DNA of 64,000 bases from Ignavibacteriota bacterium (GTDB lineage: Bacteria > Bacteroidota > Ignavibacteria > UBA10030 > UBA6906): NCBI GenBank assembly GCA_963837815.1, contig CAWIOS010000015.1:129439-193438 (forward strand), read 5' to 3'. Each line of letters opens with the position of its first letter. Position 1 is the stretch's first letter. The notes beneath the pieces are model-generated. The model was given only the letters and a program-made list of their open reading frames with translations, was not told the origin of the DNA and ran no database searches. This document shows positions 27,359 to 55,539 of this stretch, one piece after another. Both the position numbers and the translations under genes were made by a program.

Positions 27359-28345
27359 TTACGCCGCGCCGACAACCGCGTTGATCGCAGCAACGTTTAC
27401 GATGTCGCTCACACTGCACCCTCTTGAGAGATCAAATGCCGGCTTGCGGAGTCCCTGGACGACCGGCCCTATTGCCTCGGCCCCTCCGAGACGCTGTGCA
27501 AGCTTGTACCCGATATTACCCGCGTTCAGATCAGGGAAGATCAGCACGTTCGCCTTCCCCGCGATGGAGCTTCCGGGCGCTTTTGACGCGCCGACCTTCG
27601 GGACGATCGCTGCATCAAGCTGGAGCTCCCCGTCCATCTGTATATCGGGTCGTTTCTTCCGGAATATCTCCGCGGCCTGCTGGACCTTTTCGACCAGGGG
27701 GTGGCTGGCGCTCCCCTTCGTGGAGAACGAGAGGAGGGCAACGCGCGGCTGTTCGCCCGTGAGTCGCCTGTGATTTTCCGCGGTCGATATCCCGATGTCC
27801 GCAAGCTGTTCTGCAGTCGGATCGGGGACGACCGCGCAGTCTGCAAAAGAGAACACCTGATGGGGAAATACCATGAGGAAGAAACTTGAAACGATCGTAA
27901 TACCCGGGGCAAGTCCGATCACCTGTATCCCTGCCCTTAACACATCGCCTGTTGTAGAGAGCGAACCGGCGACGCTTCCATCTGCCATCCCCTCCCTGAC
28001 CATCATAGCGCCGAAAAAGAGGGGGTTACTCATCGTCTTCTGGGCCTCGGTAAACTGAATTCCCTTCGACTTCCGCAGATTGAAGTAGATATGGGAAAAG
28101 TCGCTCAGCTTGTCTGAAAGCTCGGGGTCGATGATTCTTATCCCTCCCAGGGCAGTTCCGCTCTTTTTTGCCTGTTCCTGAATGGCGCTGGTCTTGCCGA
28201 TCAGGAGGGGTTGGACGATTCCCTGGTCGGCAAGGAGCCTGGCCGCCTGTATGGCTCTTTCATCTGTTGCATCAGGGAGAACAACAGTTCTTTTGAGGCT
28301 TTTTGCCTTTGTGACTATGCTGCTCATGAGTTCTGATGGTAACAT
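27359..28345 (-). CDS. pta: phosphate acetyltransferase
   Basis: ORF 27359..28489, start trimmed to [32 protein letters not shown] (a later Met at 28327 is also possible). The C-terminus has [15 protein letters not shown]. Confidence 0.9.
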
Positions 28346-28381
28346 GCTATTCAGTCCGGTTTCAGATGAGATGGAGGGATT

Positions 28382-28409
28382 TGGTTCACATCGACAAGAT
28401 AGTGAACCA
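28382..28409. promoter_or_regulatory. 8-bp perfect inverted repeat TGGTTCAC-N12-GTGAACCA in the pta/miaB divergent intergenic region
   Basis: Read directly from the sequence. It lies about 40 nt upstream of the pta start in the AT-richer 28346..28569 spacer. Confidence 0.3.
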
Positions 28410-28569
28410 CAGCTACAAATCAAACAAGGCTCGTCGAAAGTAGACAAGCGGACCTTGCCATTTTGACAGATAATTGGAAAAATTAACAAGAATTAACCAA
28501 AATCTGCTATTTTGCGATTGATTTTCTGTCAGATAGTGATACATTAGATACCCTAGTTCCCTCATAATT

Positions 28570-34917: not shown

Positions 34918-34946
34918 TTGCCTTTATTTCAGCCCGGCCGTATATT
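34918..34946 (+). promoter_or_regulatory. putative sigma70 promoter of etfBA (back-to-back with the rpsT promoter)
   Basis: The plus strand reads TTGCCT-17 nt-TATATT. The etfB ATG at 35023 is preceded by GGAGGAACG. Confidence 0.45.
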
Positions 34947-35022
34947 CCAATTTCCGTCTTATATGGAGTTTTCCTCCCCCCGTACATGCAGGGAACGGAC
35001 GGATCACGCTCCCGGAGGAACG

Positions 35023-35772
35023 ATGAAAGTAGTCGTCTGCGTTAATCATGTCCCGGATACGGAAACGAAAATACGCGTTGCGCCCGACGGGATTACAATT
35101 GACAGGACCGGCGTAAATTTCATGTTGAGCCCGTACGATGAAATCGCCGTCGAGGAAGGGCTTCGGATCAGGGACCGGTTCAAAGGGGACGTCACGGTCA
35201 TCAGTCTCGGCCCCGAGGCCAACAGGGAAACGCTGCGCAAAGCGCTCGCCATGGGGGCGGACCGGGCCGTCCTTCTGCGGGACGACGCGGCACGGGATTC
35301 GTTCGCAATCGCAAGCGCGCTGGCGGTCGAAATCAGGAGCCTCGCGCCCGACGTTGTCCTTTTCGGCAGGCAGTCCATTGATTACGATGACGCGCAGGTG
35401 GGGACGCTCGTCGCGGGGCTTCTCGCACTTCCGTCGGTGTCCGTCGTTATGAAACTGGAAATACGCGAAGGGGGAGAGGTCCTCTGCGAGAGGGAGATCG
35501 AAGGGGGGCACGAGGTTGTCCGCACAAAGCTCCCCGCGGTGTTCATGGCCCAGAAGGGACTGAATGACCCGCGGTACCCTTCTCTCAAGGGAATCATGGC
35601 GGCAAAAAACAAACCCATCGAGGAAAAGCCGGCTGCACCCGCGGAGCTCCGCGTGCACACCATCGCCCTGCGCAAACCGCCGGCAAAGAATCCCGGCCGG
35701 ATTGTCGGGACCGACGCCTCCGCGGTTCCGGAACTCGTGCGACTCCTTCACGAAGAAGCCAAAGTCCTGTGA
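35023..35772 (+). CDS. etfB: electron transfer flavoprotein subunit beta
   Basis: ORF 34918..35772, start trimmed to MKVVVCVNHVPDTETKIRV after a strong SD. It contains the EtfB signature PYDEIAVEEGLR. Confidence 0.9.
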   Translation: MKVVVCVNHVPDTETKIRVAPDGITIDRTGVNFMLSPYDEIAVEEGLRIRDRFKGDVTVISLGPEANRETLRKALAMGADRAVLLRDDAARDSFAIASALAVEIRSLAPDVVLFGRQSIDYDDAQVGTLVAGLLALPSVSVVMKLEIREGGEVLCEREIEGGHEVVRTKLPAVFMAQKGLNDPRYPSLKGIMAAKNKPIEEKPAAPAELRVHTIALRKPPAKNPGRIVGTDASAVPELVRLLHEEAKVL

Positions 35773-35797
35773 TCCCCACAAACATCAGCCGGCTGCC

Positions 35798-36766
35798 ATG
35801 AACGTACTTGCCTTTGCAGAGGAACGCGGCGGAAGAATCAAGAAGTCATCGCTCGAAACCGTGCGGGCAGGAAGCCGGCTTGCGGATTCGCTCGGCGGGG
35901 AATTTGCCGCTGTCGTCATCGGCTCCGGCGTTGCCGGAGCGGCCGCCGGACTCGGCCGGTACGGCGCATCGCGGGTCATCGCTGTCGACGATCCACGACT
36001 GGCGCAGCACGCGAATGCTGCGGTCGCGAAAATCATCGCGGAAGTGGCGCTTGCAGAACACGCCGGCGTCGTCTTCCTTCCCGCAAGCCAGATGGGGAAG
36101 GACATCGCACCCCGCGTGGCAATAAGGCTGGATGCGGGACTTGCCCCCGATTGCATCGCACTGCGCACCGAGGGGACAGAGATCATTGCGACCCGGCCCG
36201 TGTTCGCGGGGAAGGCCCTTCTCGAAGTGCGTGTGGCCACGCCCGTCAAAGTATTTACGCTCAGGCCGAACACGTTTGACGCCGCGGAAGCACCGGGAGA
36301 GGCCCGGGTGGAGTTGAAAACGGTTCCCCTGGAACCGGCTGACCTTGTCACGACGGTGCAGGAGATGAAAGTCGCCGCGGGGCGTCCTGACGTGACCGAA
36401 GCAGACATCATCGTCTCAGGGGGACGCGGAATGAAAGGGCCGGACCACTTCGATCTCATCGAACGGCTTGCAGACGCGCTTGGTGCCGGAGTCGGGGCGT
36501 CGCGCGCCGTCGTCGATGCGGGATGGAGGCCCCATGACGAGCAGGTCGGTCAGACGGGTAAGACCGTGTCGCCTTCGCTGTATATCGCATGCGGAATTTC
36601 CGGCGCGGTCCAGCATCTCGCGGGAATGTCGTCGTCGCGGTACATCGTGGCCATCAACAGGGACAAGGATGCGCCCATCTTTCAGATTGCCGACTACGGC
36701 ATCGTCGGTGATGTGTTCGACATACTCCCGGCGCTCACCGAAGAACTGAAGAAGGCGCGTGCATGA
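35798..36766 (+). CDS. etfA: electron transfer flavoprotein subunit alpha
   Basis: ORF 35564..36766, start trimmed to [12 protein letters not shown]. The FAD-binding C-terminus is [11 protein letters not shown]...[11 protein letters not shown]...[29 protein letters not shown]. Confidence 0.9.
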
Positions 36767-37459: not shown

Positions 37460-38170
37460 CTACCGTACGAGCGCCAGCATCTCCTTGACGGCTCGCTCAA
37501 GACCCACGAACATCGCTCGCGCAATCACCGCGTGCCCTATGCTCACCTCATCGATGTCTGCGATCGTCCGGAACTGAATCATGTTGAGATAGTTCAAACC
37601 GTGCCCGGCGTTGACGCCCAGCCCGAGATCCCGGGCCATTCGCGCAGAGTTCTTCACGGCCTGGAGGAGGCTGTGCTGTTTCTTCTCCGTAGGCGCGTTG
37701 GCAAACGCTCCGGTGTGAATCTCGATTGTGTCCGCGCCCGCCTGCTTCGCGGCCTCGATCTGATCCGGAAGGGGATCGATAAAGAGGCTTACCCGGATCC
37801 CGCTGTCCTTCAGACGCGAAACAACGTCCCGCACGCGGCCCGGGTTCCCCCGCACGTCAAGACCCCCCTCCGTTGTCAGTTCCTGCCGCCGTTCGGGAAC
37901 GAGCGTCGCAAGTTCGGGCCGTGTCGCAAGCGCGATGGCAACGATTTCGTCGGTCGCGGCCATCTCCAGGTCGAGCTTTGTCTTCACAGTCTCCTTCAGG
38001 ATGCGCAGATCCCTGTCGTTGATGTGCCTCCGGTCCTCCCGCAGGTGGCACACGATCCCCTCAGCCCCCGCGAGTTCGCACAGGTGTGCCGCGGTGACAG
38101 GGTCGGGCTCGTTTCCGCCGCGGGCCTGGCGCAGCGTGGCGACATGATCGATGTTGATTGAAAGTTTCAT
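37460..38170 (-). CDS. pdxJ: pyridoxine 5'-phosphate synthase
   Basis: ORF 37460..38239, start trimmed to MKLSINIDHVATLRQARGG. It contains CHLREDRRHI, and the start overlaps the ybbR stop. Confidence 0.95.
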   Translation of the reverse strand: MKLSINIDHVATLRQARGGNEPDPVTAAHLCELAGAEGIVCHLREDRRHINDRDLRILKETVKTKLDLEMAATDEIVAIALATRPELATLVPERRQELTTEGGLDVRGNPGRVRDVVSRLKDSGIRVSLFIDPLPDQIEAAKQAGADTIEIHTGAFANAPTEKKQHSLLQAVKNSARMARDLGLGVNAGHGLNYLNMIQFRTIADIDEVSIGHAVIARAMFVGLERAVKEMLALVR

Positions 38171-39090
38171 AGGCGTTTTCTGACGATGTACTGAAGATGA
38201 TCGGGTCGTTTTGTCACGAGCTGGACTCCGGCGGGGCACGAGACGTCGGTATCAATGGCCCCGGTGGAATCTGCGGCGATCTCGGCGTACGATGTTTCGA
38301 CGCGAAAGTCCGCCGCGTTGAGCGCGGAGAGCTGCCGGATGCCTGCTCGCACGACAATTTCGATGCGCGGCGGGATCAGGATCACTTCCCTGTTTGCAGG
38401 AACAGCGACAACCTGCACCGGAAGTCCCGGGATGATCTTTTCGGCGAAGGGTTCGACGGAGATGGCGATACGCACGGAGGGAACCGAGAACGCAACCTCA
38501 TAGGGATCGGCGGACGCCAGGGGGACCTCGGCGTCAAGCGATGCCCTGATATTCTCAAACACCCGGCGCTCCGTCTTCCAGCTGTCGAGGCCACGCAGAA
38601 CCGTTGCCGCACCAGTCAGCGTCACACTGTCCGGGGCGACGGAAGTTGGTCCGACCTGTCCGTACCCCTCCCGGAAGCTCGCGAGACAGTCGAGGACAAC
38701 GGGAACCCTCTTGCGCACGGCTGAACCCAGCTCGATCCGGAGCGAATCGGGCTTCACGTCGAGGAGTCTCACCCCGGGGGCCAGGGAGATATGATCGGCG
38801 AAATCATTGAATGTGAGTGGTCGGTGGCCTGCGGGGAGCGACGAAGTGGAAAGTGCGATCACCGGCGTGCGCCCGAGAAGCACCCCCGCAAGCCGCCAGC
38901 CTTCCCCGCGGAAACGGAGCTGCATCATATGCGGGAGAGGCGTCTCCACCGCCATGCCGGCGGGGATCTCCTGCAGGACAAGCGGCACGGCGACGGTGGT
39001 CTCGTAGTCCTCGCGCATGGTGACGGAAACCCATGCCAGCACTCCGAAGAGCGTGGAGAATATCGCGATATAGAGGGAGCGTTGCTGCAT
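38167..39090 (-). CDS. YbbR-domain protein (CdaR-like)
   Basis: 307 aa with an N-terminal TM segment (LYIAIFSTLFGVLAWV) followed by repeated beta-rich YbbR-like modules. Confidence 0.7.
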   Translation of the reverse strand: MQQRSLYIAIFSTLFGVLAWVSVTMREDYETTVAVPLVLQEIPAGMAVETPLPHMMQLRFRGEGWRLAGVLLGRTPVIALSTSSLPAGHRPLTFNDFADHISLAPGVRLLDVKPDSLRIELGSAVRKRVPVVLDCLASFREGYGQVGPTSVAPDSVTLTGAATVLRGLDSWKTERRVFENIRASLDAEVPLASADPYEVAFSVPSVRIAISVEPFAEKIIPGLPVQVVAVPANREVILIPPRIEIVVRAGIRQLSALNAADFRVETSYAEIAADSTGAIDTDVSCPAGVQLVTKRPDHLQYIVRKRL

Positions 39091-39151
39091 TGGCCGGAAA
39101 AAAAAAGACCCCGTCGGAGAACACCAGCGGAGTCGGTCATCAGAGGCGGGT

Positions 39152-39682
39152 TCAGTTGCCGGCCCGCTTCTTCATGAGTTCGTGGATGAGGACGTCCTTG
39201 TTTGCCATCGAGATCTCCCGACCCTGGATGGAGAGACCGTCGGTGTTTCTCGCGAGACTCCTGAGCTGGTGAACCGTCATCGCGTCGAGCTGTGAGCGGA
39301 ATTCCGCGTCGTCGTCACTCGCGACAAAATCAAATTTCTCCTCTTCCGCTTCCGGAGCCTCCGGACGAGTCTCGCCGGGAATTACCCCGTGTTCCACGGA
39401 GGGGGCCGGGCGTTGAGTGAGAATGTCTTCGATATCGTCCGACGGGCGGGGGATGACGTCCGTGGACACGAGCTCCCCGACCCTCCGTGCGGCCGCGGCC
39501 CCAGCATCCACGGCGGCCTTCACCGCCGCCACCTCGCCGATCACCTGGACGGTCACTAGTCCGTTCCGGATATACTCCATCCCCAGCAGAGTGACGCTGG
39601 CGGTCTTCACCATGACGTCAGCGGCCTCGATCGAACCGACGAGGCCGCGTGTTTCAACCAGTCCCAGGGCGTAGTCAAGCAT
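39152..39682 (-). CDS. BMC-H microcompartment shell protein fused to an acidic linker and a Rho_N/HeH-like C-terminal domain
   Basis: 176 aa. Residues 1-90 or so are a Pfam00936-type BMC domain ([26 protein letters not shown]...[36 protein letters not shown]). An acidic spacer follows ([22 protein letters not shown]). The protein ends [41 protein letters not shown], which matches the Rho N-terminal / helix-extension-helix pattern. Confidence 0.85.
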
Positions 39683-39685
39683 GGG

Positions 39686-39982
39686 TCATTTTGCGGTAGC
39701 GCGACGGGGGAGGATCGTCTCCACGTCGGCATGAGGACGGGGAATGACGTGAACGGACACGAGTTCGCCGACCCGCTGCGCGGCGGCCGCACCTGCGTCT
39801 GTGGCCGCTTTCACCGCGCCGACGTCACCTCGCACCATCACCGTTACGTACCCGCCACCGATGACTTCCTTGCCGATCAACTGCACCCGCGCCGCCTTCA
39901 CCATGGCATCGGCGGCCTCAATCGATCCCACGAGGCCTTTCGTCTCCACCATACCGAGTGCGTCTAATGAGATGTCCGCCAT
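39686..39982 (-). CDS. BMC-H microcompartment shell protein (PduA/EutM-like hexamer)
   Basis: 98 aa that aligns end to end with PduA as I recall it: [24 protein letters not shown]...[48 protein letters not shown] lies 8 nt before the ATG. Confidence 0.9.
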
Positions 39983-40035
39983 GGGCGTTGTTCTCCTTCG
40001 TTAAGTGGCCTGAGGCCCCCCGTCAGGGCACGGGG

Positions 40036-40064
40036 AATATACCCAAGGAGCCGCACATTGTCAA
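40036..40064 (-). promoter_or_regulatory. near-consensus sigma70 promoter of the BMC shell gene pair
   Basis: The minus strand reads TTGACA-17 nt-TATATT, about 55 nt upstream of the first BMC ATG. The leader contains a CCCCGT-GCCCTG-ACGGGG hairpin and a GAAGGAG SD. Confidence 0.6.
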
Positions 40065-40076: not shown

Positions 40077-40108
40077 GTTACGCGGCGGCGTTGTTACGCG
40101 GCGGCGTT
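40077..40108. repeat. perfect 16-bp tandem duplication (GTTACGCGGCGGCGTT x2) spanning a stop codon
   Basis: Read directly from the sequence. The second copy carries the TAA stop and last codons (N-A-A-A) of the YfhO-like gene. The first copy lies 13 nt upstream of the BMC -35 box. Confidence 0.9.
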
Positions 40109-42639
40109 ATCTCCGACCGTGCCAGACGTTCCGGAAGAGGATGCACGGCGATTCACCGCCTGCCGTCGCCAGAACCCCGCCGCCGCGCAGACAACAACCA
40201 GAACCCATGCGGCGTGCGTCAGCATCCAGCCGGCGCGGTACATCGGCGGATCGAACGTAAAGATGATCTCGTGCGTTCCGGCGGGGACGAGAACCGATCG
40301 GAGGATATAGTCCGTCCTGAAAATCTCCGTCTCTTTCCCGTCGACGAATGCCTTCCAGCCGGAGGGGTAGTACACCTCGCTCAAAACAAGGAGCGCCGGC
40401 GCGGGAACATCCGTGGCGATCCGGATCTCCCGGGATTGGTACGACGTAATGCGGGGGAGGTGCACGCTGTCCGTGGGCGAGATCTGCCCGGGGAGCCGCT
40501 TGTACAGGACCGCGGTGCGGCCCGGATCGAACCCGCGGGAATTCAAGATGCGGAAGGCTTCGTCGTCCCCCGTCACCATTACCGCCTCACTCGCGTAAAA
40601 TGCCCGGGGCAACGCCGCGGGATTCCTGTAGGTGAGAACCCGTTCCGCCTGGTCCACGTTCACGAGCTGGAACTGCGGCTCCGGCAGCCTACCATGCACG
40701 ACGAGATACTGCACGTTGAGCATGTCCACGACGTTCATGTTGACGGGAAACGCCGGATCGGTGCCCCGGTACATGCAGGAATCCAGAAGCGTCTGGTAAA
40801 TTTTGAGTTTTGCGGGGCTGTATCCCGTAATCGATTGAAGCCCGTGGTAGGCGAACGCGTTGTCCATGTAAAGCGGATCGCGCGGGTCGATTCCCGCGAA
40901 TAGCCTGAACAGCCCCGGCTGGCTCTTGAGAAACGTTATCGTGGGGTCGGGCTTGAACGCCTGCGCGAGTTCCTGGGAAGGTTTCGGATCGATGTACCGC
41001 GACGCTACGAGGGACAGGTCGATTGTCACGAGGACGATGAGCGCAGCGGAAAACGTCAGCTCGCGAAGGCGTCCTTTCAGCCACACACAGCAGACGGCGC
41101 AGAGAGCGGCGGCGAGGAGCGAAAACTTCACGTAGTCCTTCCAGAAGATATCAAACCGCGCCTGGCGGAGCTGTGCGATCACGCGGCCCGCACGCGCGCC
41201 GTACTGCTGCTGGATCTGCTCCGCCTGATCCTGCTTCGTAAACATCGAGGCGGGAAGACTGTCGAGAAGGCTGCTCTGGAACAGAAGCGCGACAACAAGG
41301 AGCCCCGCGATGACGCCCCCCGTTGCAAGAAGGACGCGGTAGAGTTTCTGCGTATCGACGCCCGACTCCCGTTCTCGTGCGGCCAGAAGGATGGAAAAAC
41401 CCGTTGCGCCCAGAACGCCGGTGGCAAACGGGAGAAGGTGCAAGATCTGCTCCGGCGCGCGGAATTTGTTGAAGAAGGGGAGCCACGTGAACAGCAGCTG
41501 GTACAGGAGCGAAAAATTGCTGCCAAATGAAACGAGAACGATCATAAGCGTAACGATGCCGAAGAACATGACAAAGCGCGTCCTGCGGTAGACAAAGGCC
41601 AGCGTCCCGAACAGGATCGGAAATAGTCCCACGTACACGCTGGAATTTGTCCAGGGGATCATCGGCCCCCAGTAGTAGTCCGCTTTCATCCCGAAGAAGC
41701 CGGGGATGAGGAGCGTGACGAGTTCACCCGGGTGCCATGACCAGTTTGTCGCGTAGTCGTAAGCAAGGCCCCCCGGTGCCCCCGCCGTCCCCCCCCCGCG
41801 CATGGAGAACTGCGCGTAGTCGTACACTGAAAGGTAGATGTAAGAGGATATACAGAACCCCAGGAGGAGCGCGCCGGCAAAAAGCGTGACTTTGAAGGCG
41901 GCCTTCGGAATATTTCCTTTGAAATCCGGCAGGATGTGATAGACAAGATAGAACCCGAGAAACATGAATGCGTAGTACACGATCTGCATGTGGTTCGTCA
42001 GCATCAGCGTTCCGATGGCCGCCGCAAGGAGTCCAAGGCTCAGCGCGTCGCGCCGTTCCAGAAGCGTGTGCGTGAGAAGAACGACAAGAGGAAAATAACT
42101 GAGCGCCATGAGCTTCGACCCGTGTCCCTCCCCGGCAAGTCCCACCATGTAGGGGCTGAGCATGAACGTCAGCGCCGCAATCAGGGCTGCCGGGACGGGG
42201 AAAAGTTCCAGACGCGCATCAGAAAAAACATGAACACGCCCCCCATGAAACAGTAGACGACAAGCCATGTCCACATGCCGTTCAGGTAGAGAAGGTTCAG
42301 AACGGTCTGGAGAGCGGTCTGCACGTAGCTTACGTTGTGCGGGAGGTAGGCGACGTTGCCGAACGTGGGCATGCCGCTGAAGAAATACGGCATCCAGACG
42401 GCGTCCACCCCCTCCGCTTTCTCGATTTCGTTCCCGGCGTGCGTGTAACTCAGGGCTGCGGCAGTATCGCCCTGGGAGGCAAACGCCGCATTGTCAAAGA
42501 TGATCCCGCGGAAGACAATAAGCGTCACTGCGTACAGGAGAGCGACGCTCAGCAGGTCAAGCGTCAGCGGGGAAAACGACGAAAACGGAGACGCCGGTTT
42601 CTCGGCGGCCCTGCGGTGGTCTTTCCTGGCGTGTGCCAT
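40094..42639 (-). pseudogene. YfhO-family polytopic membrane glycosyltransferase, interrupted by one frameshift
   Basis: ORFs 42181..42675 (N-terminus, probable start MAHARKDHRR at 42639) and 40094..42274 are two frames of one protein. The N-terminal frame ends ...GGVFMFFLMRVWNFSPSRQP*, while the next frame reads ...ARLELFPVPAALIAALTFMLSPYMV. This continues the alignment with the intact paralog at 56457..58769 (MYLLASSLDLRRAPALFAGAAYMLSGFMI). The shift lies at about 42205..42215. Confidence 0.7.
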
Positions 42640-43791
42640 AGTTGCGATCCTTCCAGTTGAAGAAGTGCTGAACACTCACGGGCGCGGAAGTCCCAGTCGT
42701 TCGCTGCCGCAAAGGCGGTCAGTGTTTGGATGAATTTGGTATCCCCCCTGCGGCGCACTGCGGTGCGGAGATGTCCGATGAATTCACGGTCCGTCCCGGC
42801 GATCAGGACAATGCCGGCGAACTCTTTCGTATCGTCGGAAAAATCGGTGGCCACCGTCGGCACCCCGGCCGCGCTGTACTCATAGAGCTTGACGGGATTC
42901 ACCCCCTCCGTCAGCAGTCGTCCGCCGGAACGGAATCATTGCCGCGTCGAGGTTCCGCACGTACGCCGGCACTTCGGCATAGAGCCGGGGTCCCAGGTAC
43001 AGGAAGTTGGGATGCCGTGCCAGGCGGGCCATCTCTTCCGCCACGGAGGGATGGAGCGGTCCGATCATGACGAAATTGAACTCCGCCATCGCGCCCATCG
43101 TCCTGTCGAGAAGGCCGAAGTCGATCCACGGATAGACCGAGCCCACGTACCCCACGATCGGCGTTCCGGCCGGGGGAAGATCCAGCGGCCTGGCGGCTTC
43201 CGCTGCGAACCGTTCAAACTCCACGCCGTTGCGGACAATGTGAACGTCCCGCTCGCGGGCGTCAGTATCCGCGTGCGAAGCGTCGGCGACGTCACGCTGA
43301 CCGCGTCGGCCCGTTCGAGCGCCGGAGAGCCACTCGCGTGAACGTGCGGGGGAAATGCCGTGAAACCCGAACGCGTCGTCAATGTAGTCGAAAAGCACAC
43401 GCTTCGCCCCGACGGCTTCGGCGACGTGCATGAGCTGGAAGTTCTCGACGAAGCAGACCGTCTCTCGTCCGCCGGGCGGATCGTGCGGAGCGCGCTCCGG
43501 CGGACGAGTGCGCGCTGCAGGCGTGCCACGACAGCCCGCAGCGCCCGTGCGCGGCTGAGAAACATCGCAGCACGCCGGATGACGGGGTTCCGCGCGTTCA
43601 GAGGAAACGCCGGGACCGTCATCCGGCGGAGACCCGGGGCCACGGCGATCGGCGAGAGCATGACATGCCTGCCCAGCGTCACCGGCTCGACCCACAGGAC
43701 GTCCATCGTCCGCGACATCCTCGTCGCGAGGTGCTGCGGGCCGCTGGTAGAGGCTGTCCCAGGCAATATCGGAGAAAAAAATCAGAGTCAC
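42564..43791 (-). pseudogene. family-1 (GT-B) glycosyltransferase with the QRPQHL motif, broken by at least four or five frameshifts
   Basis: Protein-like sequence hops between ORFs 42880..43791, 43065..43766 and 42564..42902. The pieces are MTLIFFSDIAWDSLYQR | PQHLATRMSRTMDVLWVEP...RTIRP | ...VCFVENFQLMHVAEAVGAKRVLFDYIDDAFGFHG | PPHV...ALERADAVSVTSPTLRTRI | RDVHIVRNGVEFERF...VGYVGSVYPWIDFGLL...AMIPFR | NPVKLYEYSAAGVPTVATDF. The shifts lie near 43738, 43470, 43350, 43255 and 42915. The last frame overlaps the next gene's start by about 75 nt. Confidence 0.65.
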
Positions 43792-44977
43792 AGCGATCTT
43801 CTGACCTCATTGACAATCATATACAGTCGCGGGCTGACGGCGGCGGGTTCGAACATATGCCGCATCAGGAGGATAGTTCTGCGCTGTTGTGCGTAGCGCG
43901 AGAGTGGGAATTCGCGCATCACGGAACGGATGCAGTCACGGACGTCCTCATAGCTATCGCACAGGTAGCCGATATCGCCCATCTTTGAAAAACACTCTTC
44001 AAGATACGGATTGCGGAGATAGATTCCGGGCTTCACGCTCGAAATCGCGTCGAGGAAGCTTGTGCTTGCTCCGACGCGGTAGACATCGGGATCGGTGAGC
44101 GAGACCGCGTAGGTCACCCCCTGTGCACGCCGGGCGTATTCGGTCTGTGTGAGCGGAGCCGCCGGAAACTCCTCCTGCATCCCGGCATAACGCATCCGGT
44201 CGGCCTCCGTGCTGAGGTGCCCGACCATCATGAACCGGGACTCGGGGAATTCTCCCCGGATCGTTCCGGCAAGCGCAACGAATCTGTCAAACCCTTTTCC
44301 CCTTCCTCCGCTCACTCCGAAATAGCCGAACCGGACCGGTGAAGGAGGCAGCCGATTGACCGGCAGTCAGTTGGTGCACGTTCCAGGAAAACGGCATCTC
44401 GAACGCCACCGTGCTGCGCGCCGCCCGCGGCTGAAGTTCCTCTTAGGGACCGGAGTATGGACTCCCCCAGCGCGACATATCTGAGCCGCCGAGGCTGAGG
44501 AAGGCGAAACACAAGCCGCATCCCCCGGAGTGATGAGAAACGTTTTCGTGCCGCGCCGGGGACGACAGTCGCCAGGACGCCGTGCATCACTGCCAGCACG
44601 GGGACGGGAAGCCGGCTCCCTGCAAGCCGGATCTTCAGGAGAAAAAAACCGATCTCAGTTGCGGAAGCAAACAGAACGAGCGACGCGTGCTCCTCCGAGG
44701 CAACGCGGAGCGTTGTGCGAACTGTCTTCCACTCGGCGCCGAACCGGCCGGGGCCGGTAGACCATCGGGGGGGTATGGAGAGATCCCGCCACTCCACGCG
44801 GCGGAAATCCTCTGGAGCTTCTTTTCCGAGGAGTTCCCGGACGCGCGATGCATGTCCGGGTTCGCTGAGGAATATCACTGGTGAGTCCCGAAAGGCGAGC
44901 AGCACGGTGTGCACAAGCGAAGCATTCACGCGGGAATGCTCGAAATCCCGACACTGAGGTTCACTGATGACTATCAC
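43788..44977 (-). pseudogene. GT-B-like glycosyltransferase, interrupted by one frameshift
   Basis: ORF 44312..44977 (MIVISEPQCRDFEHSRVNASLVHTVLL...) stops at 44312. A different frame is open from 44366 and reads LPVNRLPPSPVRFGYFGVSGGRGKGFDRFVALAG..., continuing into ORF 43788..44315. The xRFGYxG...KGxD block is the usual start of the second Rossmann domain. The shift lies between 44315 and 44366. Confidence 0.5.
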
Positions 44978-44995
44978 GGCATGTCCAGGTTCATA

Positions 44996-46096
44996 TCAGG
45001 TCATGTCCGCATGGCATTCCCGGAGGGCCCGCACGAACGCAGCGGCGGCTTTTCCCCATGAAAAAGAGGCGGCGCGGATCCTTCCCTCTCTGCGGAGACG
45101 TTCCTGCAAATCGGTATCGTGTTCGAACCGCTGAAGCGCTTCAGCAAGGCCTCGCTCGCTCCAGGGATCGATGTACAATGCGGCATCGCCGCATACCTCC
45201 GGAATTGAAGTCATTCGTGAAGTAATAACCGGGCATCCGATCGTCATCGCCTCGAGGGGAGGCATGCCGAACCCTTCATACCGTGACGGATAGACAAGGG
45301 CAAGGGCACCCGTGTACAGCCGGGCGAGCGCGCGGTCATCCACGTATCCGGCATACTCGACGCATCCCCGGCGCAGGCCTTCATCAAGCAGCGACAGGAG
45401 TGCGGGAGGTGCGTGGCGCCTGCTTCCGGTCACGACGAGCGTCGAACTGATATTCCCGCCTGCGAACAGGCTGGAGAAGACACGCAGGAGGCTGTCGACG
45501 GACTTGCGGGGATCCAGGCCGCCAACGTAAAGAAAATACCTCTTCTCTGCAGCACCGCCGGCTTCCGCAAAATCGGCGATCGATGTCGCGCACGGGATTA
45601 CGACCGGTTCCCGCCGCACTCGGAGGTGTCGCATAATCTCCTGCTTCGAAAACTCCGAGTCCGTGACAACGAGAGTACTCCGGTCGATGTCTGACTGCCT
45701 CAGCCGCCTGTAACGCTCCTTAGCCTCGCCGCTCGCGAAATATCCTGGGATCGTCAGTGGCAGCACGTCGTGCATAGTCGTGACGACGCGTACACCGGGA
45801 CTCAGCTTCGGCACCCCGCCATTCCACGGGAAGTGGATAACGTCATTTCCCGGGTGGCGCGCGGCGATCGGAACCGCCAGCCGGCGCCAGAGCCCCGGGC
45901 CCATATACCGGCCGATCCATTTATCCTGCACTCCGGAGGGGAGCCGTGAGGCCAGCCGTCGTCTGTGAATCCCGTGGAGGCGAATCTCGGGAAAGCGCTC
46001 GGCAACGGCGCCGTACAGCCCCGACACCACCTTGGCGACTCCGGTAGCCGGAAGCTCCAGCACGCTCATGTCAATTGTGATCCTCACAATCCTCAC
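44996..46096 (-). CDS. family-4 (GT-B) glycosyltransferase
   Basis: 366 aa with YFLYVGGLDPRKSVDSLL and the E-x7-E region YPSRYEGFGMPPLEAMTIGCPVITS. Confidence 0.85.
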   Translation of the reverse strand: MRIVRITIDMSVLELPATGVAKVVSGLYGAVAERFPEIRLHGIHRRRLASRLPSGVQDKWIGRYMGPGLWRRLAVPIAARHPGNDVIHFPWNGGVPKLSPGVRVVTTMHDVLPLTIPGYFASGEAKERYRRLRQSDIDRSTLVVTDSEFSKQEIMRHLRVRREPVVIPCATSIADFAEAGGAAEKRYFLYVGGLDPRKSVDSLLRVFSSLFAGGNISSTLVVTGSRRHAPPALLSLLDEGLRRGCVEYAGYVDDRALARLYTGALALVYPSRYEGFGMPPLEAMTIGCPVITSRMTSIPEVCGDAALYIDPWSERGLAEALQRFEHDTDLQERLRREGRIRAASFSWGKAAAAFVRALRECHADMT

Positions 46097-46147
46097 TTCT
46101 GATAATCCGTCCGGCGTTCGGGGGCGGTCCGGCGGAGGCTCCGGGTG

Positions 46148-46987
46148 CTACGGGTGCTCGCCTGCACTGCGTTCGACGACCGGCTTGTGGACGAGGACGG
46201 CCGCGAGTCCCGATGCCCCCGCATTACGGTTGTCGTAGTACCCCGTAGCCGCGAGGAGGGAAGCCTCAACCTGAGTCCACCCGCTTGTCCGGTCATAGCG
46301 GAAATAGTGTTCGTACACATCCGCATGCGTTCTGAACGGCTCAAGAAGACGGTGCCAAGCCGGCAGATCATAGTTCTTCATCCAGCCGTGATTCTCGGAT
46401 TTCCCAAACGGTACACTGACGAGAAGCGTTCCGTCCGGTGCAAGGATCCTGTACATCTCCCGCAGGGCACTCACGTCAAGATCCCCGTCAAGAGTAAAGC
46501 TCTCCGTGTAACCCGTGTTGTCCATGCCGACGTGCTCGAGCGTCGAAATGCACCAGATCCTGTCGAACGAATCCGCCGCGAGTCCTGTGTTCGTGATATC
46601 CGCGATGATCGAATTCTCGTAGTACTGGCTCACATCATACGTCGGCGCCGCAATATCAACGCCGGTAAAATGCTTCGGGGAAGTGAGGCTGTTCAGGAGA
46701 AGGCGGTGGCATTCCATTATATTGGAGTGGCCGACATCAAGCACGCGGGCGCCGGGAACATACGTTGACCTGGCGAGAACAAGTTCCACGACGCGCTCCG
46801 GGAGTCCCACCCCGAACGCAGGAGGAAGGTGAATTTCCCTCGGGAAGGCCGGTTGTTCCAGCCGGAAGCCCTTGGCCGCCTCCCGGAATATCACGCGCTG
46901 AAGCCGATGTGCCGGATTGCCGAGAAGGAATGTTGACAGCGCACGGACGAAGGGAATGCGGGTCATAGGCTCAGGGTTGAAAAGCAT
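46148..46987 (-). CDS. class I SAM-dependent methyltransferase
   Basis: 279 aa with VLDVGHSN...FDRIWCISTLEHVG...LAPDGTLLVSVPFG. An alternative start (MTRIPF) lies at 46966, just after the flippase stop. Confidence 0.75.
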   Translation of the reverse strand: MLFNPEPMTRIPFVRALSTFLLGNPAHRLQRVIFREAAKGFRLEQPAFPREIHLPPAFGVGLPERVVELVLARSTYVPGARVLDVGHSNIMECHRLLLNSLTSPKHFTGVDIAAPTYDVSQYYENSIIADITNTGLAADSFDRIWCISTLEHVGMDNTGYTESFTLDGDLDVSALREMYRILAPDGTLLVSVPFGKSENHGWMKNYDLPAWHRLLEPFRTHADVYEHYFRYDRTSGWTQVEASLLAATGYYDNRNAGASGLAAVLVHKPVVERSAGEHP

Positions 46988-48341
46988 GAATACGCTTCAT
47001 GATCACTGACCCCGCGATCGACACGCCGATTATCTCATTGGCAATGAGCGCCAGTGCAGAGGCCATCGGCCCGATGCGGGGAAGAAACACAAAATTGATC
47101 ACAAGCACGGCGATCAGTTGGACGAGATTGATCCACCAGTACACTCTTACCATACCGAAGCTGTAGCCGATAACACCTATGGGGCAGATGAGGATCGCAA
47201 GCGCATAGCGGAAAGAGAGGACCTGCCCGAGCGTTGTGCTCTCCGCGTATGCCTGCCCGAAGAGGACCGGGGCCAGCAACGGGGCCACAACCGAGTACAC
47301 GACCGCCAGGACCGCGACGATGAAACTGAGCCGGAACGTCTGTCCCAGCATCGCGAGCGTCTCCCGGGATGATTTCGTCGCCGACGCCCTCGGCCAGAGG
47401 GCTGCGTTAATGGCGTTCAGGACGATCGTCAGCGGCATGGCAAACCTGCTTGCCGCGTTGTAGATGCCGAGGTCGTGTTTGGTGAGCATTAGCCCCATAA
47501 GCCAGACGTCCGCCCGTGTCACCATCATAACAAACACCATTGACATAAGGTTGAATCCCGCAAACATCCCGGGAGCAGCCTCAACCCCGGGTTCCGTGGG
47601 GGCAATCTCCTGCACCGGCCCGCGAAGCAGGTTGCGTATTCTCCCGGCGCTCGGAAGAAACCCTTCCGTCCCTGTGACAAGCGCTGCCCGGGGGACCATG
47701 AGAAGAAACGCAACAGTGCCGAGGCCCACGCCCGCCAGAGTGGCGACAAGAACGGCCTGAACGGACCAGATCGCGAACCATGCGACAATGCAGATTCCCG
47801 CAAACGAAATCACCGTCTGCCCGACGGTCACGATTGTGTTCCGCTCGAACTGTTTCATCGATTGGAAGTATATATTCGGGACGGAGGCGAGCGCGTTAAA
47901 GACTCCCCCCAGAAGGCCGAGGCGGAGAAGCGGTGCAAGCCCTTCGATCCTGAATGCGCGTGCAAGAAAGGGTGCGGCGATAAACAGGGAAAGCGTAACG
48001 AGAAGGGAAAGTATCAACCGGAGCCTGAATGCCCAGCGGAGGATCGTAAGCTGTCCGCCGAAATCCCTCAGGGAGACAGCCCGCGACGCGTACCGTACGG
48101 CGGTCTGACCGATCCCCAGATCAGAGAGAACCGTGGCGATCCCGGCCACGCTCATCACAAGCGCGTAGGCGCCGAAATCATCGGGCCCGAGCCCCCGTGC
48201 AGCCAGGATCGAGGTCATGAGTCCCGCCAAAACCGCGATGACCTGCGGAATCATGAGCAAGACGACGTCCCGGATCCCCCTCTTTGAGCCTAGAAAGAGA
48301 GACCTGATCCCCTCAATTGCGTCGGGAACGAATAGATTCAC
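46971..48341 (-). CDS. MOP-superfamily oligosaccharide flippase (Wzx-like)
   Basis: 456 aa with about 12-14 TM segments and polysaccharide-biosynthesis-protein architecture. The GTG start overlaps the upstream stop (GTGA). Confidence 0.8.
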   Translation of the reverse strand: MNLFVPDAIEGIRSLFLGSKRGIRDVVLLMIPQVIAVLAGLMTSILAARGLGPDDFGAYALVMSVAGIATVLSDLGIGQTAVRYASRAVSLRDFGGQLTILRWAFRLRLILSLLVTLSLFIAAPFLARAFRIEGLAPLLRLGLLGGVFNALASVPNIYFQSMKQFERNTIVTVGQTVISFAGICIVAWFAIWSVQAVLVATLAGVGLGTVAFLLMVPRAALVTGTEGFLPSAGRIRNLLRGPVQEIAPTEPGVEAAPGMFAGFNLMSMVFVMMVTRADVWLMGLMLTKHDLGIYNAASRFAMPLTIVLNAINAALWPRASATKSSRETLAMLGQTFRLSFIVAVLAVVYSVVAPLLAPVLFGQAYAESTTLGQVLSFRYALAILICPIGVIGYSFGMVRVYWWINLVQLIAVLVINFVFLPRIGPMASALALIANEIIGVSIAGSVIMKRIHAFQP

Positions 48342-49603
48342 GGGGTCGGCAGGATCTCTATGGACGGCAGCGGAAAGATGAATTTCGTTCCGTGTTTCAT
48401 TGTCTCTTTTTCCCTCTCGAGGAATTCTTCACGGAAGTGCCAGGGGAGGACAAGGATAGTAATCGGGTTTCAGCCTCCGCGACTCCTCCTCGCTTATGAT
48501 GGGAATATCGGTACCGAGTGTCATGGCCCCGTATTTGTCCGGGTTCCTGTCGGCGGCCGCATCGATAATCTTCCTGTCGATCCCGCACCACTGGAGGATG
48601 GTGTTTCCCTTCGTTGACGCGCCGTACACGTGGATCTTCTTTCCCTCCTTTTTCAGCCTTTTGAGAAGTCCGATGAGTTCCTCGCGATGGACGTTTGATG
48701 TGATCCTGGAAATTCCGGTACGGCTTGTCCGTGTCGAGCTCCATGTCGAATTCCTCCTGGCGGAGCGTACGGAGATTCTGTGCGTACGCCTCGCGCCTGA
48801 ACGCGTAGTTGTCCGCGTGGGTGGCGAAACAGCGGATGCTCCCGCCGTTGATCCCGTTAAGCGAGACATCGACGATCTTCATTTCGGCGCGCTTCAGTAC
48901 GTTCTCGATAACCGCGAGACTGTAGTACTCAAGATGCTCGTGACAGATCGTGTCATAGGAATTCATCCGGAGCATCATCGGCATGTATGACATTTCGAAA
49001 ACCCAGAGCCCGGTCTTTGCAAGGAGTTGCTTGATGCCGCGCGTGAACTGCACCGGGTCTTCGAGGTCATAGAACATTGCGACGGACGTGATAATGTCAA
49101 ACGGCTCGCCCCCCGTCCGCGAGGCGAGTTCGCGCGATGGAAAGATATCCCGGACAAGCTCGATCCCTTCGCCGGCTTCGAGTGCGATGTCCGAGGGATC
49201 GATGCCGAATTTCACGAAACCGGGCGGGTAGCACTTCAGGAGCGTGCCGTCATTGCACCCGATGTCGAGCGACGCGCGCGGATGGCCTGTCCGTCAGTGA
49301 CATCGCCTGTGCGGCGATGCCCTGGAGGTGCGAGCGCATCGTGTTGTTGGTCCCCGATCGGTACCAGTAATCGGAATACAGAACCTCTGGTGGCACCGTA
49401 CTCTCCATCTGGAGAAGCCCGCACGCCTTCTCGTCTAGGAGGGGATTGCAGCGGACGAGGACAGTCGGAATTTTCCGCATCGGAGGAGGATCCTCCCCCT
49501 GCTTCACGAACGAACCCTGAAGATGTTGTTCGCCGAGATCGATCACCTTCGTCAGCGCGCTGGAACCGCAAACGCGGCAGGTTTTCCTGTGAATGAGATG
49601 CAT
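48338..49603 (-). pseudogene. NDP-hexose C-methyltransferase (TylCIII-like: Zn-ribbon + SAM MTase + C-terminal domain), broken by three 1-nt insertions
   Basis: The N-terminus (ORF 49250..49603) is MHLIHRKTCRVCGSSAL...YSDYWYRSGTNNTMRSHL. The junctions I reconstructed are RPSARV|LDIGCNDGTLLKCYPPGFVKFGIDPS (about 49270), NFQDHIKR|HREELIGLLKRLKKEGKKIHVYGASTKGN (about 48690), and RRLKPDYY|LVLPWHFREEFLEREKETMKHGTKFIFPLPSIEILPTP* (about 48445). Each is restored by removing one base. Confidence 0.75.
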
Positions 49604-49647
49604 TGATGTTCTCCTGAGTCAACAGCGTTGTCTTCTGGGCCCGACCG

Positions 49648-50691
49648 TCAGTAGCCGCGTTTCGAGACCTTTTCGAAATCGGACTTCGCCATCATGCGGA
49701 CAAGGTCGGGGAACGCGGTCTTTGGCGCCCAGCCCAGCTTCGTCCGCGCGCGCGTTGCGTCTCCGATCAGGAGGTCCACCTCCGTCGGGCGGTAGTACCG
49801 CGGATCCACCTGGACGCGGATCTCGCCGGTCTTCCCATCGATCCCCCGTTCCGCGGGTCCCTCTCCCCCCCACTCCAGCGGCATATCGAGAAGCCTGAAC
49901 GTCAGGTCGGCAAACTCCCTCACGGTATGGGTGGTTCCCGTCGCCAGGACGAAATCCCCGGGGGTCTCCTGCTGGAGCATCCGCCACATCCCCTCGCAGT
50001 ACTCGGGGGCGTAGCCCCAGTCCCTCTTCGCGTTGAGGTTGCCGAGCGCCACCGACTTCTGCATGCCGAGCTTGATGCGCGCGGCTGCGAGCGTGATCTT
50101 GCGCGTCACAAACCCCTCGCCGCGCCGCGGGGATTCATGGTTGAAGAGAATGCCGTTGCACGCGTACAGGTTATATGCTTCTCTGTAGTTGATCACGATC
50201 CAGTAGCCGTAAAGCTTTGCCACGCCGTACGGGCTCCGTGGATAGAACGGCGTCGTCTCGCTCTGGGGCGTTTCCCGAACCTTGCCGAACAGCTCGCTCG
50301 TCGAGGCCTGGTAGAAGCGCGTCTTGACGCCCGTTTCCCGTATCGCATCGAGAAAGCGGAGCGTTCCCACCGCGTCGACCTGCGCCGTGTACTCCGGCAC
50401 GTCGAACGAAACCTTCACGTGGCTCTGTGCCGCGAGGTTGTAGATCTCATCCGGCGTGATCTTCTCCAGGATCCGGTTCAGGTTCGATGTGTCCGTCACG
50501 TCGCCGTAATGGAGAAACAGCCGCTTGTCCATCAGCGAGTCGTTCTGAATGTACAGGTGATCGATCCTTCCCCTGTTGAAGGAACTGCTGCGGCGGATGA
50601 TGCCGTGGACTTCATACCCCTTGTCGAGAAGGAGTTCCGCCAGGTAGGAACCGTCCTGCCCCGTGATGCCCGAGATCAGCGCTTTTTTCAC
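49648..50691 (-). CDS. gmd: GDP-mannose 4,6-dehydratase
   Basis: 347 aa with [48 protein letters not shown] and SPYGVAKLY. Confidence 0.95.
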
Positions 50692-50724
50692 TTGTGGCTT
50701 CCCGTCCTTCCGTTGTGTGAGTTC

Positions 50725-52029
50725 TTAGAATCTGTTGCGGATGAATGTCCGGATGTCCCTTGTTCTGCCCATGACCGCGGCGGCCGAGAGCGGAACGAAG
50801 CGGACGAGGAGTCTGGCAGTAAGGACCGACGTCAGGATGCTCGCCGCAAGATACCCCGCGCCGGCGCCGGCCGTCCCCCAGAGGGGGATGCAGAAAAGAA
50901 ACGCGGCCAGGGAAACGGCCAGAATCTGGATGCCGAGGATGAACGAAAGCCTCGCCTCGCCGAGGCCCATCAGCACGTTCGAACCGATCGAGGCGACGGG
51001 GACGACGAACGTGAGGAACGCGAAAAGCCTGAGAAGAGGTTCCGCCCCGGCATAGCGCCCACCGTACAGGAGGTGCACGAGAATCTCCGGAAACGCGAGG
51101 AAGACGACCGTCACAGGGATGAGCCCCAGCGTCAGGAACAGTATTGACTTCTCCGTCATCGCCTTCAGCGAGGGGTAGCTTCCCTGCGACGAAAGCCTCG
51201 ACGCTGCGGGGAGGATGAACATTTGGACGACCTGCGCCGCCATTTCGTAGATCCGGACGAACACCTTCGCCGAGTTATACACGGCGACCTGCACGGGTCC
51301 CGTGAAGGCGGACAGGATGAACGAATCCGCTTTTGTCGAGAAGAGGGAGCTGACGACGTTTCCAAGTGAGTACTTTCCGTAGTCCCACACCTGGCGCACG
51401 GCGGCCGTCGGTGGGCGAAGCCTGACGTGCATCATCGAGCGCGCAAACCAGAGGCCCGCAAGCGACGACGCCGAGAGGGAGACGATGTTGATGAATACGA
51501 GGTCCATGGCGGAATCGAATCGGTGAAGCCGGGACATCACCCACACCAGAAGCGGAGCGCCGACAAAGTGCACCGCGTCCGTCCAGAACACCTGCTGGAC
51601 GCGGAACTGCGACTGCAGGAGCGCGAGCGTGAAGTTGCGGAAGAACGACGCCGCGAGCATCGCGGGCACGTAGAGCAGGAGCACCGGGAGTGACGGGGAA
51701 TTGAACACCGCTCCCGCGGGCGCGCTGCATGCCGCCACGGCAAGGGAAGCAGCCGCGATGAACAGGCCGTTCAGGAGAAGAGACGCCGACACGATCCCTT
51801 CGAGTTGTGCGTTCTCCTCCGACGAGAACTTCAGGAGCGGCTGAAGCGCGAACGCCGTCGCGAGTCCGGAGATCACAAGAAACACCTCCTGCACGAGCAC
51901 GAAGTTGCCAAACTCCTCTTCCGGGAGAACGCGGATCACGAGCCATACGTACCCGATGCCGTAGACGACCGGCAGCGCCTTGTCGGCGAGTCCCCATGCC
52001 CCCTTTACCAGGTATTTCCCGAACTCCAT
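50725..52029 (-). CDS. second MOP-superfamily polysaccharide flippase/exporter
   Basis: 434 aa, polytopic, with a Wzx/PST-like pattern. Confidence 0.75.
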   Translation of the reverse strand: MEFGKYLVKGAWGLADKALPVVYGIGYVWLVIRVLPEEEFGNFVLVQEVFLVISGLATAFALQPLLKFSSEENAQLEGIVSASLLLNGLFIAAASLAVAACSAPAGAVFNSPSLPVLLLYVPAMLAASFFRNFTLALLQSQFRVQQVFWTDAVHFVGAPLLVWVMSRLHRFDSAMDLVFINIVSLSASSLAGLWFARSMMHVRLRPPTAAVRQVWDYGKYSLGNVVSSLFSTKADSFILSAFTGPVQVAVYNSAKVFVRIYEMAAQVVQMFILPAASRLSSQGSYPSLKAMTEKSILFLTLGLIPVTVVFLAFPEILVHLLYGGRYAGAEPLLRLFAFLTFVVPVASIGSNVLMGLGEARLSFILGIQILAVSLAAFLFCIPLWGTAGAGAGYLAASILTSVLTARLLVRFVPLSAAAVMGRTRDIRTFIRNRF

Positions 52030-52035
52030 GGCGGA

Positions 52036-52869: not shown

Positions 52870-53636
52870 CAGGCTTCCGCGAGGAGATAGATGACCCCGG
52901 TGCACGCGAACTCTCGGAGAAGAGGAACGTGCTCCACGATGCCGGCCCTGAGCGGTTGCAATCCGAACCGGATGTGGTTCGGGCTGATCAGGTAGGCCTG
53001 CCTGTGCTCGACGCGTAGCCCTCCGCCGGCTGCGATTCGCTCGAATTTTCTCATCCCCATCCTCAGCCTGCGGAGCTTGGCGACTTCCTCCACCATGTGG
53101 GGAGCCTCCCCCCTCAGGTGCGGGATGATGAGTGACCCCGCAAAGGGCACAAGGTGAAAAAACGGAAGCCGCGCGAACCATGTCCGGAAATGCTGCTGGT
53201 GGCCGCCATAAGCGGAATAGTAGGGGGGAAACGTGATGAAGATCTTTCCCCCCGGGTTCAGGTACCCCTTGAGCCGCGAGATCATCGCAGGCTTGTGGTC
53301 AAGATGCTCGAACACGTCATGGAGCGTAACGAGATCAAACCGCGTGCCGCTGAAGGGCACGGCCCCGTCGTACATGTTCCCGTGCGTGAACGTAATCGCG
53401 CGCTCTCCACACAGCGCGAGCGCCGTCTGGATACGTCCTGCGTCAATATCGAATCCCGTGCACACGCCCCCGCGGTCGTGCAGGGCGCAGAGTCCGCCCC
53501 CCTCGCCGCATCCCACGTCGAGAATGGAGGCGCCGTCAAGGCGCGTTCCCCATGCGCCGAAAAGCGGGATGATGGAGCGGGCGCAGACGTCGTATTCGTA
53601 CTGCCAGTACGTTCGTGCGTGGTCATCTCCGTTCAT
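52869..53636 (-). CDS. class I SAM-dependent methyltransferase
   Basis: 255 aa with ILDVGCGEGGG...FDLVTLHDVFEHL...LNPGGKIFITFPP. Confidence 0.8.
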   Translation of the reverse strand: MNGDDHARTYWQYEYDVCARSIIPLFGAWGTRLDGASILDVGCGEGGGLCALHDRGGVCTGFDIDAGRIQTALALCGERAITFTHGNMYDGAVPFSGTRFDLVTLHDVFEHLDHKPAMISRLKGYLNPGGKIFITFPPYYSAYGGHQQHFRTWFARLPFFHLVPFAGSLIIPHLRGEAPHMVEEVAKLRRLRMGMRKFERIAAGGGLRVEHRQAYLISPNHIRFGLQPLRAGIVEHVPLLREFACTGVIYLLAEA

Positions 53637-53683
53637 GTATCACCTCCCGCGTCAATCCAGTCATAGTGTACGGAATGGGTGAA

Positions 53684-55536: not shown

Positions 55537-55539
55537 CAG

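Follow-up and report, generated by a model that had tools for sequence, protein, structure and literature searches.

What do two shell genes of a bacterial microcompartment (BMC) do when no other part of such an organelle lies near them? This question is raised by a stretch of 64,000 nucleotides from an Ignavibacteriota bacterium (assembly GCA_963837815.1, contig CAWIOS010000015.1, positions 129,439 to 193,438), the whole of which we refer to as the window. Here, two adjacent genes on the minus strand encode hexamer-forming shell proteins (BMC-H), a standard one, H1, and an extended one, H2. A preliminary description of this DNA had called the pair orphan genes, which would either feed a main BMC locus elsewhere or act as hexamers alone, outside the classical paradigm. 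We consider it probable that H1 and H2 are the hexamer operon of a FRAG1-type BMC. As FRAG1 shell genes are normally scattered over the genome, a pair standing alone is what one would expect and does not point to a new kind of system. The two genes and the parts of the longer product are as follows.

39686 to 39982, minus strand: H1, standard ("basal") BMC-H hexamer protein, 98 amino acids (PF00936)
39152 to 39682, minus strand: H2, extended BMC-H hexamer protein, 176 amino acids (PF00936)
39419 to 39682, minus strand: H2 residues 1-88, BMC-H domain, with edge motifs KTAS and PRPS and pore motif IRNGL
39335 to 39418, minus strand: H2 residues 89-116, variable acidic, proline-rich linker, recognized by its low model confidence and lack of alignability
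39155 to 39334, minus strand: H2 residues 117-176, conserved small helical C-terminal domain, recognized by its motif and AlphaFold model

The gene pair and the FRAG1 type

Both products belong to the BMC-H family. The preliminary description had read the locus as two adjacent PF00936-type genes separated by 3 nucleotides; the gap is as described, and the family's hidden Markov model (HMM) failed on neither protein. H1 matches it with E=3.6e-29 and 101 bits and H2, over residues 5-80, with E=3.8e-26 and 91.3 bits, at a Pfam cut-off of 24.5. H1 also scores 138 against NCBIfam EutM, above the cut-off of 133; none of the NCBIfam equivalog cut-offs is reached by H2. The solved structures closest to H1 are CutN (about 85% identical), C. 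difficile EutM, and Haliangium BMC-H, and H1 aligns end to end with these three and with PduA. Its edge motifs are KAAR and PRPH, and its pore motif is GGGY. By its sequence, H1 is a canonical facet-forming hexamer protein, and it is predicted to build facets. For H2, an AlphaFold model based on 65 homologues has a confident BMC fold over residues 1-89 (predicted local distance difference test [pLDDT], >90 for residues 1-88), which Foldseek superposed on CutN, PduA, and EutM with target template-modelling (TM) scores of 0.84-0.91. Each chain has a single, non-permuted BMC fold, as seen for H1 in the alignment and for H2 in the model. The H2 edge motif KTAS is KTAN in most relatives, and the tiling-edge lysine of the KAAN motif and arginine of the PRPH motif are present in both proteins and invariant across the H2 family. 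Beyond the BMC domain, H2 continues for 90 residues. This extension includes a confidently folded helical domain, which follows a linker that cannot be aligned between relatives and is predicted to be disordered over residues 91-116 (pLDDT, <50).

FRAG1 was catalogued as a shell-protein-only type with 57 loci, most prominent in Ignavibacteria (Sutter, Melnicki, Schulz, Woyke & Kerfeld 2021, Nat Commun 12:3809, PMC8217296, Supplementary Data 2). It has two BMC-H proteins, one of which bears a large ordered C-terminal extension, and lacks a classical main locus, its shell genes being spread over as many as six sites that are remote from enzymes (PMC8217296, Supplementary Data 2). A triplet of pentamer proteins (BMC-P; green, grey, and orange clades), common among FRAG types, is encoded at other genomic sites; a PduS/PduT pair occurs in 24 of the 57 loci and hence is optional, and the cargo and substrate are unknown (PMC8217296). 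The pair described here fits this definition. Its taxon range covers the Ignavibacteria and allied phyla of the Fibrobacterota-Chlorobiota-Bacteroidota (FCB) group, a standard H1 together with an H2 carrying a 90-residue extension corresponds to the text of Supplementary Data 2, and the shell genes are dispersed and remote from enzymes, with no cargo identifiable near the pair. None of the features that we tested differs. The catalogue is silent on three features of the pair: the YbbR-like neighbour, the conserved promoter and terminator, and the possible SAP/Rho-N-like fold of the extension.

A direct link with the catalogue is provided by Melioribacter roseus, to which a FRAG1 component, MROS_2475, is assigned (PMC8217296). 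In a metagenome-assembled genome (MAG) of this species (locus L085), an H1 orthologue 89% identical to ours is followed by an extended BMC-H that matches the profile of the H2 C-terminal domain at 4e-11. Because the pair fits the FRAG1 definition, M. roseus is catalogued as FRAG1, and L085 holds the orthologous pair, we regard the finding as one that was already known. The word orphan is thus not appropriate: the layout is the norm for catalogued FRAG1, and the pair is widespread across Ignavibacteriota. It recurs throughout Ignavibacteriota, Kryptonia, and related Bacteroidota MAGs as a near-invariant standard hexamer followed by an extended one; assemblies that carry it include those bearing the names Ignavibacterium album, Melioribacter roseus, and Candidatus Kryptonium thompsonii. 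Among the Ignavibacteriota loci, the identity of H1 is 88-97%. Full-length H2 homologues of equal length are numerous (60-88% identical), and wherever a source is named, it is a MAG of Ignavibacteria, Ignavibacteriae, or Bacteroidota. The best genome matches overall are Ignavibacteriae/Ignavibacteriota MAGs at 76-85% identity, and the best among species-representative genomes is an Ignavibacteriae fen MAG at 85%. An exact look-up of both window proteins in public assemblies gave no record.

The pattern of substitutions among these relatives bears on whether the pair has a function at all. The ratio of nonsynonymous to synonymous substitution rates (dN/dS) is 0.02-0.045 for H1, 0.07-0.15 for the H2 BMC domain, and 0.08-0.24 for the H2 C-terminal domain, and it reaches about 0.74 in the linker in the closest pairs. 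H1 is under very strong purifying selection, and so, less strongly, are the BMC domain and C-terminal domain of H2; the linker is under none. Together with the pattern of conservation, this indicates that H1 and H2 are functional. The isolation of the pair from any other BMC gene in the window might also suggest a decaying remnant of a lost microcompartment locus, without current function. The low dN/dS values of H1 and of both H2 domains (0.07-0.24) contradict this, as do the intact reading frames and the promoter, ribosome-binding site, and terminator conserved across many relatives, and we give this explanation practically no credence.

The extended hexamer and its C-terminal domain

The C-terminal domain of H2 is conserved among relatives as the motif MTVHQLRtLAR..GL.I.GReISkANK..LI.ELMKKR. 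In the full-length AlphaFold model, a small four-helix bundle spans residues of about 125-174, and modelled alone the domain reaches a pLDDT of 91.6. The top Foldseek matches of the domain, all with E >1, are the Rho N-terminal domain (query TM-score of 0.62, root-mean-square deviation of 1.8 Å over 47 columns) and the SAP domains of 3'hExo, DEK, and PIAS1 (query TM-scores of about 0.6); E values of this size are expected for a query of 60 residues. Relatives of H2 give sub-threshold matches to Rho_N (PF07498; E=0.002-0.3), and hhalign places the domain in register with the N terminus of E. coli Rho, with a weak E of 0.12. A Pfam scan of the window H2 left the C-terminal domain without a match, PF07498 included, and the domain profile had no match among the Protein Data Bank (PDB) sequences. 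Taken together, these matches are suggestive of a SAP/HeH/Rho-N-like fold, at a level that is not statistically significant. No further protein with this domain was found in the window or in the first 86 related loci (L001-L086).

The architecture resembles that of EutK from the enterobacterial EUT1 locus (PF16365), in which a single BMC-H domain also precedes a small helical domain that folds separately and is of a suspected nucleic acid-binding type. The identification of the H2 domain as EutK_C was nevertheless rejected, as PF16365 had no match at E up to 10 in the window H2 or at E up to 1 in seven relatives. H2 also scores only 74 against NCBIfam EutK (NF012010; cut-off, 218). In addition, H2 differs in having a long disordered linker and a domain resembling SAP, HeH, or Rho-N, whereas the EutK domain is helix-turn-helix-like.

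A second resemblance to EutK lies in gene position. In several Firmicutes loci, the C-terminal domain (35-57% identical) ends a BMC-H, with a pentamer gene about 3 kb upstream (loci L035, L051, L054, L056, L062, L065, L072, and L079). The locus of Candidatus Formimonas warabiya (L072, positions 2643-12793) is EUT2-like and encodes this BMC-H between an EutM-like gene and an aldehyde dehydrogenase gene (AldDh), with the gene order EutA, EutL-like trimer, corrinoid adenosyltransferase, EutJ-like protein, small BMC protein, EutN, PduS-like protein, PduT-like protein, EutQ, H1, extended H2, AldDh, and phosphotransacylase (PTAC). Its domain-bearing BMC-H, too, has no match to PF16365. Because the extended hexamer is found inside complete Firmicutes loci that also contain EutN, PduS/PduT-like proteins, AldDh, and PTAC, it is, judged from gene content, a genuine and regular shell component that also occurs in classical loci.

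The occurrence of the extended hexamer in complete EUT2-like loci can also be taken to mean that the window holds an ordinary satellite pair for a classical, enzyme-containing main locus elsewhere in the genome, for example one of the MIC4 type as in M. roseus. MIC4 main loci and FRAG1 satellite loci are both catalogued in M. roseus and other Ignavibacteria (PMC8217296), and the genome beyond the window could hold such a main locus. Set against this, the pair with its own promoter and terminator is deeply conserved in Ignavibacteriota, both where a second BMC type has been reported and where none has, and the MIC4 hexamers are typed as a distinct clade, H_camo2, apart from the FRAG1 components (PMC8217296). 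We therefore regard a classical main locus served by this pair as unlikely. The earlier idea of a satellite feeding a main BMC locus comes close to the FRAG1 assignment in that the other parts would lie elsewhere; it departs from it in that FRAG1 has no classical main locus. The CcmK3/CcmK4 pair of the beta-carboxysome is similar as a pair of hexamer genes that is remote from the other shell genes and separately regulated. Unlike the present pair, it belongs to a system whose main locus is defined and whose cargo is known, and CcmK3 and CcmK4 carry no added domain. The shell of Haliangium ochraceum (HO type; PDB 5V74, 5DJB) shares the KAA[KR]V edge, GGGY pore, and PRPH motifs of its BMC-H with H1; its genes form a compact main locus with trimer (BMC-T), BMC-H, BMC-P, and AldDh genes side by side (as in L087-L089), whereas the pair here stands alone.

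Within a FRAG1-type compartment, H1 would make up the bulk of the shell facets and H2 may be a minor, specialised tile inserted among H1. In solved shells (the Haliangium structures), the C terminus of BMC-H lies on the concave face, which faces the cytosol, and for this reason the linker might display the SAP/HeH-like domain outside the shell. Displayed in this way, the domain could link the compartment to nucleic acid or a protein partner and so help to position or partition it, analogous to what has been proposed for EutK. According to the literature, the pentamers at the vertices (the BMC-P triplet), often PduS/PduT, and the cargo would be encoded at other genomic sites.

H1 and H2 form a two-gene transcription unit

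The signals around the pair, and the gene that follows it, are listed here.

40036 to 40064, minus strand: sigma-70-type promoter, TTGACA (40059-40064), 17-nucleotide spacer, and TATATT (40036-40041), from a consensus scan
39983 to 40035, minus strand: 5' leader including the Shine-Dalgarno sequence GAAGGAG (39993-39999), from conservation
39098 to 39134, minus strand: intrinsic terminator, hairpin GACUCCGCUGG...CCGACGGGGUC followed by U9, from the predicted fold
38167 to 39090, minus strand: YbbR-like membrane protein, a conserved downstream neighbour with a weak PF07949 match

The promoter agrees with the consensus at 11 of 12 positions (one site found, compared to 0.3 expected from shuffled sequences) and is invariant in 11 relatives, while the DNA 5' of it is unconserved. 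Across the same 11 relatives, the block GTTGACAATGTG-N6-CTTGGGTATATT is invariant or almost so. The Shine-Dalgarno core AAGGAGA is also invariant among relatives. At the other end of the unit, a minus-strand hairpin (39107-39134) is followed by U9, which reads on the plus strand as the A9 run at 39098-39106. The pairing of the stem is maintained by compensatory changes among relatives, and the T-run is retained in 11 of 12. H1 and H2 are thus transcribed as a unit of two genes that has a strong, conserved promoter of its own, a strong ribosome-binding site in front of H1, and a conserved intrinsic terminator. The preliminary description had proposed such a unit from the TTGACA-17-TATATT promoter, the GAAGGAG sequence, and the A9/T9 tract, and the conservation of these signals in relatives supports it. 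The unit is sharply delimited and probably highly expressed. H2 has no Shine-Dalgarno sequence in front of it (...ACCGCAAAATGACCCATG). As it lacks its own ribosome-binding sequence and starts 3 nucleotides past the H1 stop codon, H2 is probably made by translational coupling and in a smaller amount than H1.

The leader had also been described as structured. This did not hold: 14 homologous leaders fold to a consensus of only -2.5 kcal/mol and the H1 leader has no match to an Rfam family, and a structured leader or riboswitch was rejected. A scan of metagenomes from the Joint Genome Institute (JGI) for the exact pattern GTTGACA-N11-CTTGGGTATATT gave 19 matches, 14 of which are directly upstream of an H1 orthologue and 5 of which are unrelated. 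None of the 19 precedes a pentamer gene, and the scan thus gave no support to the idea that this lineage-specific promoter is common to other FRAG1 loci.

Search for the other microcompartment parts

Whether pentamers, trimers, or cargo genes accompany the pair was examined in the window, in related loci, and in protein databases. An HMM built from 39 PF03319 pentamers, 5 of which had been verified against Pfam PF03319, found no BMC-P in the 64 kb, and a third BMC domain did not turn up there in tblastn searches with H1 and H2. Among the other called genes, Pfam scans recovered housekeeping and glycan-synthesis functions only, with no Aldedh, PTAC/PduL, or EutN. PduS and PduT are absent from the 64 kb as well. 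This confirms what had been claimed for BMC-P, BMC-T, aldehyde dehydrogenase, and PduL. The preliminary description had further claimed that no gene in the 64 kb encodes a protein with an encapsulation peptide, and one gene deserved a closer look in this regard. A phosphotransacetylase gene (27359-28489, minus strand) lies 11 kb from the pair, next to miaB and with a TTGACA-type promoter upstream. It encodes the classical PF01515 type, not PduL, and its N-terminal extension of about 50 residues is an artefact of taking the longest open reading frame (ORF). As the extension vanishes with the likely start at Met49, there is no sign of an encapsulation peptide, and this enzyme was rejected as encapsulated cargo.

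In about 60 FCB-group loci, the BMC-P HMM had no match within 10 kb of the pair; it matched only in the Firmicutes and Thermodesulfobacteriota loci. A profile of the grey-type pentamer had only Clostridia among the matches listed. In the catalogue tree, the FRAG1 green pentamers belong to the "viridian3" subclade together with the HO main-locus pentamers (PMC8217296), which is the literature evidence that such pentamer genes exist in Ignavibacteria. Because of this neighbourhood to the HO type, Haliangium BMC-P (verified against PDB 5V74) was used as a query. The best 120 matches are all at least 73% identical, those with a name are from Haliangium or Kofleriaceae, and two matches on long contigs are ordinary HO main loci. 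Among the matches listed for the grey-type profile and the Haliangium query, none lies on a contig equal in length to one that carries the hexamer pair. A search of 1.84 billion representatives yielded 1212 BMC-P clusters, and the 10 that were looked up are archaeal-labelled or without a name. The PF03319 pentamers P0274, P0284, P0285, and P0292 and their cluster members are named from Hodarchaeales or Heimdallarchaeota and Undinarchaeales MAGs, and those labelled Hodarchaeales or Heimdallarchaeota have long C-terminal tails rich in lysine and proline. These archaeal-labelled pentamers may be either real or contamination.

Several observations weigh against the FRAG1 assignment and the role sketched for H2. 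The BMC-P triplet was seen neither in the 64 kb of the window nor within the 10-kb flanks of related loci, and no Ignavibacteriota pentamers appear among the listed matches of two BMC-P protein searches, which are filled by Clostridia and Myxococcota. No pentamer gene lies downstream of any of the 19 motif matches in the JGI metagenomes. For the C-terminal domain, the fold is assigned on weak grounds (Foldseek E >1; hhalign E=0.12; the domain has no Pfam match in the window protein), and the outward display and tethering role suggested for it are inferences.

The same absences are what one would see if H1 and H2 alone formed sheets, tubes, or a scaffold without pentamers, possibly tethered by the C-terminal domain and together with the YbbR-like protein, and no closed compartment existed. 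BMC-H proteins expressed alone do form sheets and tubes. Neither the 64 kb nor the 10-kb surroundings of the pair in about 60 related loci contain a pentamer, trimer, or cargo gene, the promoter of the pair is strong and autonomous, and 50 of 61 loci have a YbbR-like gene after the pair. Opposed to this are the typical character of H1, a basal shell hexamer about 85% identical to CutN, and the presence of the extended hexamer in complete, pentamer-containing loci elsewhere. Moreover, the BMC-P triplet is catalogued as common in FRAG types, FRAG1 included (PMC8217296). That such genes are missing from 64 kb is also hardly informative for a genome several megabases long. Assemblies free of pentamers thus seem quite improbable, and we consider very improbable the more specific proposal that a pentamer-free lattice is anchored to nucleic acid or the envelope by the SAP/HeH-like domain and works with the YbbR-like protein. 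The suggestion that these hexamers act alone, outside the classical paradigm, found no positive support; the pair is present in the FRAG1-listed M. roseus (L085) and the extended hexamer in pentamer-containing EUT2-like loci.

With the assignment to FRAG1, a catalogued organelle type with an unexplained function has been found again, and any lead on FRAG1 is of some use. Those obtained here are modest: a delimited unit with conserved signals, an extension that resembles a SAP/HeH/Rho-N fold and differs from the EutK domain, its occurrence in EUT2-like loci of Firmicutes, and a YbbR-like neighbour. If complete genomes of this lineage proved to lack pentamers, the interest of the case would rise considerably.

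Of 61 FCB-group loci (Ignavibacteriota, Bacteroidota, and Kryptonia), 50 have the YbbR-like gene directly 3' of H2 and in the same orientation, as do none of 9 others; the remaining neighbours of the pair vary between lineages. This adjacency could be inherited gene order or a functional link. Pfam scans bear out the flanks given earlier, a glycan operon on one side and ybbR and pdxJ on the other: upstream of the pair are YfhO and a glycan-synthesis cluster, and downstream are the YbbR-like gene and PdxJ. Genes for the electron-transfer flavoprotein beta and alpha subunits (34918-36766, plus strand) are situated 2.5 kb from the pair, as they are in the close relatives L001 and L002, and we found no evidence tying them to the compartment. 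Neither tRNA genes nor Rfam families were found in the whole 64 kb, including four stretches of 0.9-1.5 kb without a confident gene by codon usage-based calling (13730-14604, 17213-18657, 54989-56456, and 58983-59886). Pfam leaves the ORFs at 42880-44977 and 50725-52029 without an assignment. The glycan-synthesis cluster (42564-56451) contains glycosyltransferases, methyltransferases, flippase-like proteins, and a GDP-mannose dehydratase, and it is bracketed by two paralogous genes for YfhO-like membrane proteins (40094-42274 and 56457-58982, minus strand).

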